From Candidatus Omnitrophota bacterium (lineage in GTDB: Bacteria > Omnitrophota > Gorgyraeia > Zapsychrales > JBDRMG01), in assembly GCA_043812495.1 (NCBI GenBank), contig JBDRMG010000043.1, positions 1 through 59,554 of the forward strand: 59,554 nt of DNA, read 5' to 3'. The position numbers and the translations under genes are program-made. This document shows, one piece after another, positions 6,896 through 43,047 of the stretch; the first letter of the stretch is position 1, and each line of letters begins with the position of its first letter. The notes under the pieces are model-generated. The model saw nothing but the letters and a program-made list of their open reading frames with translations, did no database searches and was not told the DNA's origin.

Positions 6896-7070
6896 AATGA
6901 GGTCTGTACTTATGGAACGGCAGTGCCCGCTAATTTCTTTAAAATTTAGCGAGGTCTCGTCAATTCGATTTCATCGAATTGACGGAAACATAAGTGCATG
7001 ACCGAATTAACCCCGCCCGCCACCGAATCAATGGCGGGCGGGGATGAAGCAAATACGATGATGCTATTTC
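6896..7070. repeat. Family B modular two-stem repeat, copy 1
   Basis: AATGAG...ACTTATG[hairpins]CATAAGT...GAATTAACCCC[hairpin]GGGGATGAAGCAAAT...TATTTC. Homologues at 31765, 36468, 42532 and 59354. Confidence 0.85.
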
Positions 7071-34292: not shown

Positions 34293-34364
34293 AGCGAGGG
34301 ACGGGAGTTGAACCCGCGACGTCCAGCTTGGGAAGCTGACATTCTACCGCTGAATTACCCTCGC
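34293..34364 (-). tRNA. tRNA-Gly (CCC), CCA not encoded
   Basis: GCGAGGG acceptor stem, anticodon loop TT-CCC-AA, GGTTCAAC T-loop; full cloverleaf folds. Confidence 0.97.
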
Positions 34365-42076: not shown

Positions 42077-42517
42077 TTATTTGCCCAGAAGGGTGGCTAA
42101 AGCCTCAAGTCCCAAAAGATAACTTTGAACTCCAAAGCCGCTGATCTGACCGGAACTAACAGGGGCGATCAAAGACGTGTGTCGGAATTCCTCCCGAGCG
42201 TAGATATTCGAAAGATGAACTTCCACAGTCGGCAATTGGACGGCCGCCAAGGCGTCGTGAATCGCAACGCTTGTGTGCGTGTAGGCCGCGGGATTGATCA
42301 AGATTCCTTGAATTTTATTCTTCTTGGCTTGACCAATCGTATCCACAATTTCTCCCTCATGATTGGATTGAAAGATGACCAACGTCATGCGGTGTTTCTG
42401 GACTTGTTTCTTAAGCTGACCATTAATAGCCGCGAGGGTTTGCTTTCCGTAGATTTTTGTTTCTCTTTTACCTAACAGATCCAAATTGGGTCCATGAATC
42501 ACAAGTATCTTTTTCAA
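42077..42517 (-). CDS. aroQ: Type II 3-dehydroquinate dehydratase
   Basis: [32 protein letters not shown]. Confidence 0.97.
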
Positions 42518-42531
42518 TGTAAGCCTCCTTC

Positions 42532-42879
42532 AATGAGCGCATCACTTACGGAACGAGCGGAACGTGAGTGACGTAAGTGATATTCGCGAATTGAATCCCC
42601 ACACCAATTTGACGGCATGGGAATATTTTTAATTAATGGTTTAGACACAATGAGACCGTTTTCTTCGAACTTAGCGTTTCATGTCAAATTGGTGTGGGGG
42701 TCTAAGTCTGCCTCAAACTTACGTCTTTCACTAGCGCTCAATCCGTAAGTTTTTTCCTCCTAAGACCTTCTTTAATGAGCCCACCTTTGAATCAATGGCG
42801 GGCTCATTGACCCCGCCTTTTTGGCGGATCTTCACAAATTATTATTTTCCTCGCCTCGCCAAAAGGGCGGGACGCCGTC
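42532..42879. repeat. Cluster of at least five hairpins including family B copy 4 and family D copy 2
   Basis: ATCACTTACG/CGTAAGTGAT; CCCCACACCAATTTGAC/GTCAAATTGGTGTGGGG; AAACTTACG/CGTAAGTTT; AATGAGCCC/GGGCTCATT; CCCGCCTTTTTGGCG/CGCCAAAAGGGCGGG. Confidence 0.88.
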
Positions 42880-42891
42880 GACCTTCCCAAT

Positions 42892-43047
42892 TCATTGCTC
42901 CGCCTCATCGACGAGCATGATGGGAATCCCGTCTTTGATAGGATATTTTCGCCCGCATTGGACGCAGACAATTTTTTTCTCCTCAAGCTTCACATCACTC
43001 TTGCATGCGGGACAGGCCAAAATCTTCAGTAATTCGTTATCGATCAT
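42892..43047 (-). CDS. Trm112-like small protein (not in ORF track)
   Basis: Hand translation MIDNELLKILACPACKSDVKLEEKKIVCVQCGRKYPIKDGIPIMLVDEAEQ. Confidence 0.93.
   Translation of the reverse strand: MIDNELLKILACPACKSDVKLEEKKIVCVQCGRKYPIKDGIPIMLVDEAEQ

Follow-up and report, generated by a model that had tools for sequence, protein, structure and literature searches.

Why are two genes that almost touch in nearly all of their relatives held 374 nt apart in one genome, and what fills the gap? The question is raised by a spacer (42518-42891) in contig JBDRMG010000043.1 of a Candidatus Omnitrophota bacterium (assembly GCA_043812495.1), a stretch of 59,554 nt that was analysed as a whole and is referred to below as the window. 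The spacer separates a gene for a Trm112-like protein from aroQ, both read on the minus strand. Coordinates in the window are those of the plus strand; labels in C denote contigs of the source genome (1.94 Mb in 66 contigs, ~90% complete), and labels in G and L denote genomes and loci of relatives. The explanation favored here, to which as a whole we assign a probability of about 0.6, is that the spacer is no conserved RNA gene but a place where non-coding DNA repeats, specific to Omnitrophota and able to fold into hairpins, have piled up, and that the unit next to aroQ is the gene-less form of an element of ~450 bp. In its full-length form, that element carries a gene for an 84-aa GIY-YIG nuclease in the loop of its central hairpin, with the stop codon in or abutting the 3' arm.

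A junction enlarged in one lineage

The order Trm112-like gene to aroQ is conserved across the taxonomic order, in the source genome as part of a co-oriented run that continues with pepP and efp. Of 30 genome loci, nearly all have the two genes about 0-65 nt apart, and the distance is 32 nt in G001, the sole genome of the same family. Among 40 metagenome loci the gap runs from -2 to 98 nt, bar three outliers of 139, 172 and 221 nt, the spacers of which are unrelated to the one described here. As the gap is tiny in nearly all relatives, the 374-nt spacer appears to be a lineage-specific expansion.

A simpler state of the junction exists elsewhere. The aroQ products of the two closest relatives are each 74% identical to that of the source genome. 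In one of them (L087) the genes overlap by an ATGA stop/start and there is no unit; in the other (L088) a 98-nt spacer holds a single two-hairpin unit with the same connectors as here, GGATTCAATTCGCG ... GCGCTCATTGAAGGAGG, directly before a TTG start. An earlier note, made from this DNA alone, had proposed a hotspot where modules are added one after another, and had named an invariant region or modules confined to this site as outcomes that would speak against it. Neither is seen: the region as found in the window is absent from relatives, and its modules recur genome-wide.

Two tandem units

Read in the sense of the genes, the spacer begins with 19 unique nt and continues as two tandem ‘scaffold’ units. 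In a scaffold unit, a TCAAT-type connector joins a central hairpin of the CCCC...GGGG type to a second hairpin, and these are followed by a CTCATTRAA tail and a purine-rich tract that resembles a ribosome-binding site. The distal unit can be parsed as the D hairpin, TCAATGAG, the P* hairpin and CTCATTAAAGAAGG, with D filling the position of the central hairpin. The proximal unit is longer: it reads TCTTAGGAGG, hairpin H2, GACTTAGAC, hairpin B, ATTCAATTCG, hairpin H1, CTCATTGA, AGGAGG, six bases, and then the TTG start of aroQ (coordinates of all parts are collected in Table 1).

The distal unit looks older than the proximal one, because its P core is degenerate and its tail has decayed. The modules of the proximal unit, for their part, are 87-100% identical to other copies in the genome. 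The 5' arm of H1 is 100% identical over 36 nt to C3:12681-12716, in a match that starts exactly at CCTCC, the complement of AGGAGG; at the C3 copy, these outer arms enclose two different small hairpins. The 3' arm of H1 matches C9:644-669 at 92% identity; B has 94-95% identity with C1:17550-17661 and with C66:17998-18102, and is flipped relative to the scaffold in the latter; H2 is 87% identical to C47:47740-47816. Since these closest relatives differ from module to module, the proximal unit is a mosaic of modules with separate histories.

The decayed tail of the distal unit adjoins the left end of the proximal unit. This layout fits what is expected if a new unit inserts beside a ribosome-binding site and supplies a new one. 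Stepwise stacking is supported by the decay of the distal unit, by this layout and by the one-unit state in L088. The proposal that modules were added one after another is supported as far as the junction of recurring modules, the two tandem units and the L088 state are concerned; the order of events, for its part, would follow from anatomy, decay and position.

A repeat family with its own grammar

Comparison of the genome with itself yields 456 short-repeat islands, 57 kb in total or ~3% of the genome. The repeats lie almost always in intergenic spacers (~71% of island bases are outside open reading frame calls). When spacers of at least 20 nt are counted, and those with at least 40 nt of repeat are taken as carriers, 243 of 833 carry repeats; the Trm112-like/aroQ spacer ranks 12th.

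The P module is a 21-nt palindrome, CCGCCATTGATTCAGTGGCGG. Its centre is the ‘loop motif’ that the earlier note had seen on different stems, and it does stand at 7017, 36543, 42781 and 59388 of the window, where the lower stem differs from site to site. At four or fewer mismatches, 151 copies are present in the genome, 49 of them identical, as against none for a reversed-pattern control; each of 40 relatives holds 0-3 matches to the pattern, at no more than two sites. All 49 identical copies share a fixed T.G mismatch, an imperfection which argues that they derive by copying from a master sequence, and that they were not each selected for pairing. P occurs in either orientation within scaffolds and caps many unrelated stems. 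Its flanks vary (gagt/acga, cgc/gcg, gagc/gctc) and have neither a GTAG nor a CGTC tag.

Hairpins are joined by a grammar of connectors: TCAATGAG - hairpin - CGAATTGAC in one orientation, and (GGGG)TCAATTCG - hairpin - CTCATTGA + AAGGAG in the other. Genome-wide, AATTC-N28-58-CTCATTRA is matched 65 times and its reversed control 3 times; for GG[GT]T[CT]AATTC[GA] and its control the counts are 97 and 3. Copies of the left-end motif TCTTAGGAGG are preceded by an AGGAGG-like hexamer in 6 of 7 cases. The D hairpin, which had been taken for a member of a repeat family as well, was rejected as such: its stem is essentially unique to this site, the nearest similar stem being at C33:15967. Each arm of D is itself a CCGCC/GGCGG mini-hairpin.

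The ribosome-binding tail

The tail is an integral part of the repeat, because identity with the C3 copy starts exactly at the complement of AGGAGG and because AA(A/G)GA is kept even at a distance from gene starts. Of 106 repeat-associated tails, 49 (46%) are flush with a start codon, most often at +12 or +13, which is the canonical Shine-Dalgarno spacing. Tails that are not beside a start codon keep AA(A/G)GA and have lost GGAG. Tails facing a gene start are about twice as frequent as those facing a gene end.

A unit that brings its own AGGAGG tail and inserts just upstream of a start codon would leave the downstream gene translatable. The translatable junction so retained could then accept further units, and these would stack there.

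A nuclease gene inside the central hairpin

The genome carries 15 small GIY-YIG genes. One of these, at C5:24312-24563 on the minus strand, is an intact gene for an 84-aa protein consisting of a single GIY-YIG domain (PF01541, E = 1e-16). It lies in the 279-nt loop of a B-stem hairpin (C5:24295-24599; stem ACCCCCACACCAATTA, 16-18 bp perfect), with its TAA abutting the 3' arm, and the hairpin in turn is part of a complete scaffold, H - B - H - CTCATTAAAGGAGG - ATG. The B stem, CCCCCACACCAATT, is common to gene-bearing and gene-less copies. The best PDB matches of the protein are the UPF0213 proteins 1ZG2 and 1YWL; no NCBIfam model scores above its cut-off.

Homologues with 52-74% identity are enclosed by the same or a near-identical stem in some seven further genomes, most of them from Omnitrophota. 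An intact or near-identical B stem brackets the gene at C5, L048, L167, L168, L169 and L173, and a degraded one does so at L170 and L171. The four Omnitrophota homologues found among species-representative genomes (65-74% identity) are all in a B stem with perfect arms of 16-19 bp, and at least three of the four are accompanied by H hairpins, by the TTCAATTC/TTTAATTC connector and by a tail of the CATTGAAGGAGG type. Two homologues in metagenome-assembled genomes (MAGs) labelled otherwise (57-61% identity) have a degraded B stem, and more distant homologues, in bacteria of the candidate phyla radiation (CPR), are in other stems, often inside rRNA genes.

Gene-bearing and gene-less forms can also be compared at one site. 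At the yebC junction of G001, a GIY-YIG pseudogene lies in the near-identical stem CCCCCACCAATTA; the orthologous junction of the source genome has a gene-less B hairpin. The left hairpin at this junction has a P core at its apex in the source genome and not in G001. The arrangement extends beyond B: G023 has the same gene-in-hairpin layout with a CCCCGCACCTTTT stem, and G051, G011 and G034 have it with CCCAGCACT stems, both being stem families that are present gene-less in the source genome. Three stem families of the source genome (CCCCACACCAATT, CCCCGCACCTTTT and CCCAGCACTAATT) have gene-bearing counterparts. Hairpins of the CCGCC...GGCGG class, to which P and D belong, stand no more than 150 nt upstream of 6 of the 15 GIY-YIG genes, compared with 5.7% of all genes (p = 1e-4).

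A small GIY-YIG nuclease thus appears to be the better-supported enzyme partner, at any rate of module B and of the unit with three hairpins, and H2-B-H1 would be the element in its gene-less form. The nuclease would recognise its cognate folded hairpin on single-stranded DNA (ssDNA), as Ssn nucleases do; nicking there would start copying, or a spread of repeats akin to gene conversion. Modules may also be swapped or inserted at hairpin apices, giving mosaic units, as is suggested by P cores on many stems and by the copy in which B is flipped. A broader proposal, which can be held only tentatively, is that the scaffolds are an undescribed class of mobile DNA, the sole protein of which is a bare 84-aa GIY-YIG nuclease with its gene in the loop of the element's terminal hairpin, spreading by structure-directed ssDNA insertion upstream of starts and into hairpin apices and junctions. 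Copies that end in a ribosome-binding site would then be near-neutral insertions in operons, and junctions such as Trm112-like/aroQ would grow module by module.

Several points weigh against this account. Only 1 of the 22 B-stem hairpins in the genome holds the gene: measured between 13-nt arms, the loop is 7 nt long in 11 hairpins, 74-78 nt in 7 and 279 nt, with the gene, in 1. The 69-nt loop of the B hairpin in the window has no significant similarity to the GIY-YIG gene. Over 61 genomes, the number of scaffolds correlates with the GIY-YIG count at rho 0.32 and with the count of Y1 transposase genes at rho 0.27, values too weak to discriminate, and 9 of 35 scaffold-rich genomes have no GIY-YIG match at the threshold used. 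The link to the nuclease is weaker for P, H and D than for B, the orientation of P has no replication-strand bias (p = 0.23), and transposition by the nuclease is something we infer from the arrangement of genes and stems. The order of insertion, likewise, is read from decay and position only. No close strains by which to fix it were found: an exact-protein look-up was empty, the best metagenome aroQ is 74% identical, and no genome of the same genus is among the 60 relatives searched.

Some further observations concern the loops and the GIY-YIG genes. Central hairpins with long loops (74-78 nt) are found at C43:42597, C1:17552, C66:18000, C16:25207, C16:62747, C16:131832, C29:15325, C2:54249 and C47:29210; the loops are near-constant in length, yet between subfamilies they are no more alike in sequence than shuffled controls. 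Loops of the B' family are likewise constant, at 45-51 nt. The idea that the B loop is a remnant of the gene was tried and dropped: the other 74-78-nt loops are not demonstrably homologous to it, and the C29 loop cannot be aligned to the G001 pseudogene.

Distant homologues at L172, L177 and L178 (CPR and other MAGs) lie within other perfect hairpin arms, in 16S or 23S rRNA genes. Many small GIY-YIG genes of these Omnitrophota are also found in or beside tRNA genes, in relatives (L052, L055, L057, L059, L056, L058, L066) and in the source genome (C66:14680, C36:601, C51:8024); they are flanked on both sides by a duplicated portion of the tRNA, with a mini-hairpin, CCCCGCC...GGCGGGG, at the junction. 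At L050, in G023, a downstream response-regulator gene seems to take its GTG start from the 3' arm of the GIY-YIG hairpin.

Other enzymes, host processes or RNA

One way to explain the spread of the modules is growth of the kind known from repetitive extragenic palindromes (REPs) and bacterial interspersed mosaic elements (BIMEs), driven by an HUH enzyme; the earlier note had suggested this. A RAYT or an IS200-type TnpA, both of the Y1 type, would cut the TCAA connectors beside hairpins and so spread the modules. The genome has the means, with 7-8 Y1_Tnp matches that include three RAYT-like genes of 325-331 aa; P, as an imperfect palindrome with a fixed T.G mismatch, is of the kind seen in REP and IS200 hairpins; the correlation with Y1 counts, weak as it is, points the same way. 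Moreover, an IS200 of the C64 type has inserted at three sites exactly within the connector, its left end following GGGGT(C/T)AA and its right end preceding TTCGG, so that a Y1 enzyme does recognise the connector as a target. Being a Y1 target does not, however, make the modules Y1 cargo. The ends of this IS200 (left end ACCCAGCGGGGAATCCCCGCC..., right end ...CCACGGCTGTAAAGCCGTGGGTATCTATT) and its hairpins are unlike B, H, P and D, its tnpA at C64 has an in-frame TAG, and the GTAG tag is absent from the modules. The search for RAYT or TnpA genes flanked by the same motifs turned up other repeats instead: each RAYT-like gene is bordered by inverted repeats of another kind, the arms of which number only 4, 17 and 1 genome-wide, and of the Y1 genes at C2, C45, C4 and C47 (the three RAYT-like ones and one of 220 aa), none is flanked by anything related to B, H, P or D. 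Scaffolds with a Y1 gene inside were not seen, either in the source genome or in the loci of relatives that were read, and 8 of 35 scaffold-rich relatives have no Y1_Tnp match; the B stem, by contrast, encloses a GIY-YIG gene. A Y1 driver is accordingly judged unlikely. The earlier note was right to be cautious about the IS200 of the window itself, a fragment at 2-88 with a hairpin unlike these repeats. It may also be that no dedicated enzyme is involved, host template switching, slippage, and recombination or gene conversion doing the work while GIY-YIG genes home into the loops as passengers. The mosaic ancestry of the modules would suit such processes, as would the flipping of B between perfect inverted arms; the gene is absent from most hairpins, the B loop has no homology to it, and one scaffold-rich relative lacks both types of enzyme. 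But 49 identical P cores on unrelated stems, and 456 islands in 1.9 Mb, call for an efficient copying process. The same stem, furthermore, stays with the same clade of proteins in different genomes, at 55-74% identity, with the stop codon in or abutting the stem, which speaks for co-evolving ends and not for random homing. Host processes by themselves therefore seem improbable.

A different perspective supposes that the spacer works as a structured RNA: within the Trm112-like/aroQ transcript, the hairpins would stabilise the message between cistrons, mark a site of processing or control translation, and would be retained on that account. The spacer is inside a co-oriented operon and would be transcribed; the H1 stem ends at the ribosome-binding site, tails favor gene starts over gene ends, and L088 carries a related unit at the same junction. 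Folding is very strong in the sense direction (z = -6.8 for the whole 374 nt); it is stronger still on the plus strand (z = -8.4), and 0 of 100 shuffles did as well on either count. On either strand the minimum-energy fold is one hairpin of ~210 nt. Single modules folded as DNA give z = -3.7, -3.9, -1.9 (H2, weak), -4.8 and -4.5. Against an RNA function, the hairpin region is absent from the junction in nearly all relatives, the same modules also occur beside gene ends, and they occur in both orientations relative to transcription. The spacer has no sigma-70-like promoter and no intrinsic terminator. A known RNA family was sought and rejected, the spacer having no Rfam match at gathering or relaxed thresholds: with Rfam 15, only a tRNA at 34293-34364 passes the gathering score in the window, and the best matches in 42400-43000 have E = 0.36 or worse and scores far below gathering. 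When 59 H units are folded, the antisense strand is the more stable one (-25.8 vs -21.9 kcal/mol, p = 3e-9), and G-U pairs are not in excess on the sense strand (32 vs 41). An RNA function as the reason for the spacer is thus considered very unlikely. Folding on both strands, the lack of a G-U excess in the sense strand and the occurrence of P and B in either orientation fit a role of the hairpins at the level of DNA, with side effects on the mRNA possible.

Across the H units, it is the complement of the strand bearing the ribosome-binding tail that folds more stably, possibly a sign of which strand the hairpins act on. Two observations on the Y1 genes can be added. The RAYT-like proteins (C2:46102-47079, C45:203-1198 and C4:1223-2215) have an N-terminal Y1_Tnp domain and a long C-terminal extension, and one of the repeat types flanking their genes, GGGGACGTTGATGA, with 17 arms in the genome, is a separate small REP-like family. 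The C64-type IS200 is found at C64:450-600, C18:19039-19160, C24:100-170 and C8:76550-76650, and is distinct from the fragment in the window; the C18 copy is a mini-derivative of ~120 bp made of left and right ends.

Relation to known systems

The closest described system is that of the Ssn nucleases. These proteins of ~90 aa, of CDD family cd10448, consist of a GIY-YIG domain only and cut ssDNA beside their own hairpin repeats (Chenal et al. 2025, PMC11893778). NTS/SRM repeats, which are also dispersed, stand on both sides of their genes, and the authors likened the layout to an insertion sequence (PMC11893778). Here too, a single-domain GIY-YIG gene is bracketed by hairpin repeats that are also dispersed, in tens to hundreds of copies. 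The differences are that the arms pair around the gene, with the stop codon in or abutting an arm, and that extra flanking hairpins, connectors and a ribosome-binding tail make up a unit of ~450 bp. The SRM consensus HGTCWY..YYVSBRH..WNVSBRG..RNCYNB has 7 matches in the genome and 7 in the reversed control, with none in 42400-43000 and none within 300 nt of the 15 GIY-YIG genes.

REP, REPIN and BIME sequences with their RAYT enzymes (Bertels & Rainey 2011, PMC3116915; Di Nocera et al. 2013, PMC3733652) resemble the present family in being short, imperfect palindromes of high copy number that are almost always intergenic, in forming inverted doublets that can fold into larger hairpins and mosaics with fixed linker motifs, and in having a partner enzyme gene flanked by the same repeats. 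They differ in that the bracketed gene here encodes a GIY-YIG nuclease and not a Y1 transposase, that neither a GTAG nor a CGTC tag is present, that the units have a ribosome-binding tail and lie mainly just upstream of starts, not downstream of genes, and that hairpins are nested at the apices of other hairpins. Enterobacterial BIMEs, built from REP types Y and Z with defined linkers, are unrelated in sequence, and only the joining of palindromes by fixed connectors is common to both. The resemblance to REP/BIME asserted for this locus therefore extends to mosaic behavior, and stops short of the tag and of a RAYT gene flanked by the same repeats.

With IS200/IS605 elements and their miniature derivatives, the units share a hairpin-dependent, single-strand logic and insertion beside a short specific sequence, without obvious duplication; the modules have no sequence in common with IS200 ends, and the connector is only a target of IS200. 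The shared terminal inverted repeats of miniature inverted-repeat transposable elements are present, in that B arms of 13-19 bp are common to gene-less and gene-bearing copies. AGGAGG follows CTCATTGA and an AGGAGG-like hexamer usually precedes TCTTAGGAGG, a possible target duplication; both are conserved parts of the repeat, so that a duplication is indistinguishable from the element itself. B has no flanking direct repeats.

The pneumococcal BOX, enterobacterial ERIC and neisserial Correia elements are long hairpins of 100-250 bp that lie in operons, are co-transcribed and modular, and sometimes carry expression signals. The likeness is that of modular intergenic hairpin elements within operons. 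To our knowledge, none of them encloses a nuclease gene in a hairpin or has a conserved ribosome-binding tail, and we know of no case among them in which a 21-nt palindrome is nested at the apex of many stems. Full-text literature searches found no published description of such repeats in Omnitrophota.

Implications

The Trm112-like/aroQ spacer is one of about 240 repeat-bearing spacers in a small, gene-dense genome of 1.9 Mb, ~3% of which consists of these apparently undescribed repeats. About half of the tails stand against a start codon and apparently supply its ribosome-binding site. Given this share of the genome and the position of the tails, the repeats influence how operons are built, and probably how they are translated, throughout an uncultured phylum. 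If a GIY-YIG nuclease is the driver, a second class of enzyme, besides HUH/RAYT, would maintain REP-like repeats, and Ssn-type nucleases would be extended to a new hairpin specificity, with possible use as ssDNA tools. For annotation, such spacers resemble structured RNAs and break assemblies, and should be masked or labelled as repeats.

Features of the locus

The hairpins that the earlier note had described are all present. The repeat finder returns B with 17-bp arms and a loop close to the ~70 nt it had given, and the CTTACG/CGTAAG, AATGAGCCC/GGGCTCATT and D hairpins are where it had placed them (Table 1). H2 is an inverted copy of H1, and the long-range pairs 42544-59/42735-50 and 42564-78/42717-31 nest around B. 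AATGAG does occur three times, at 42533, 42649 and 42774; the copy at 42649, in the B loop, may be there by chance.

Table 1. Parts of the Trm112-like/aroQ spacer and its bordering genes, in order along the plus strand of the window
Feature	Position	Strand	Structure	Remarks
aroQ	42077-42517	-		TTG start 42515-42517
AGGAGG ribosome-binding site	42524-42529	-		6 nt before aroQ TTG; 3' tail of proximal unit
Connector CTCATTGA (TCAATGAG on plus strand)	42530-42537	-		genome-wide pattern AATTC-N28-58-CTCATTRA
H1 hairpin	42538-42586		stem 42541-50/42572-81, extended by 42529-42/42582-95; CTTACG/CGTAAG	DNA fold -14 kcal/mol, z = -3.7
Connector ATTCAATTCG (CGAATTGAAT on plus strand)	42587-42596	-		between central hairpin and H1
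B central hairpin	42597-42699		perfect 17-bp arms 42597-42613/42683-42699, 69-nt AT-rich loop	repeat finder
Connector GACTTAGAC (GTCTAAGTC on plus strand)	42700-42708	-		recurs at C66:18103, C16:83597, C47:47806, C15:32285
H2 hairpin	42709-42755		stem 42715-23/42744-52; CTTACG/CGTAAG	local DNA fold weak, z = -1.9
Left-end motif TCTTAGGAGG of proximal unit	42756-42765	-		seven genome copies
Decayed tail CTCATTAAAGAAGG of distal unit	42766-42779	-		former ribosome-binding tail
P* hairpin, AATGAGCCC/GGGCTCATT	42774-42808		core 42781-42801	3 mismatches to 21-nt P consensus; z = -4.8
D hairpin	42811-42872		arms 42812-26/42857-71, 30-nt AT-rich loop	z = -4.5
Unique 19-nt spacer	42873-42891	-		beyond Trm112-like stop codon; no repeat coverage
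Trm112-like gene, 51 aa	42892-43047	-		stop codon 42892-42894

Other arrangements of the repeats

Elsewhere in the genome, the modules enter into further combinations. A composite of ~150 bp, with ~35 copies (e.g. C6:25414-25530, C47:78865-78960, C33:27935-28030), has the order GAAATATTATAATTGTATTTGCTTAATCCCCGC - P - GCGGGGTCAATTCGG - P-capped hairpin - CTCATTGAAAGGAG; in it, an AT-rich head with TATAAT replaces the left hairpin. A double mini-hairpin, CGTCAAATTGCC..GGCAATTTGACG - AGATCT - CGCCAGATTTCC..GGAAATCTGGCG, is nested at the apex of the H hairpin in several copies, at C3:12716-12792, C9:575-640, C5:24200-24270 and C15:32170-32260. Genome-wide, there are ~27 copies of its palindrome centre, GAGATCTCG.

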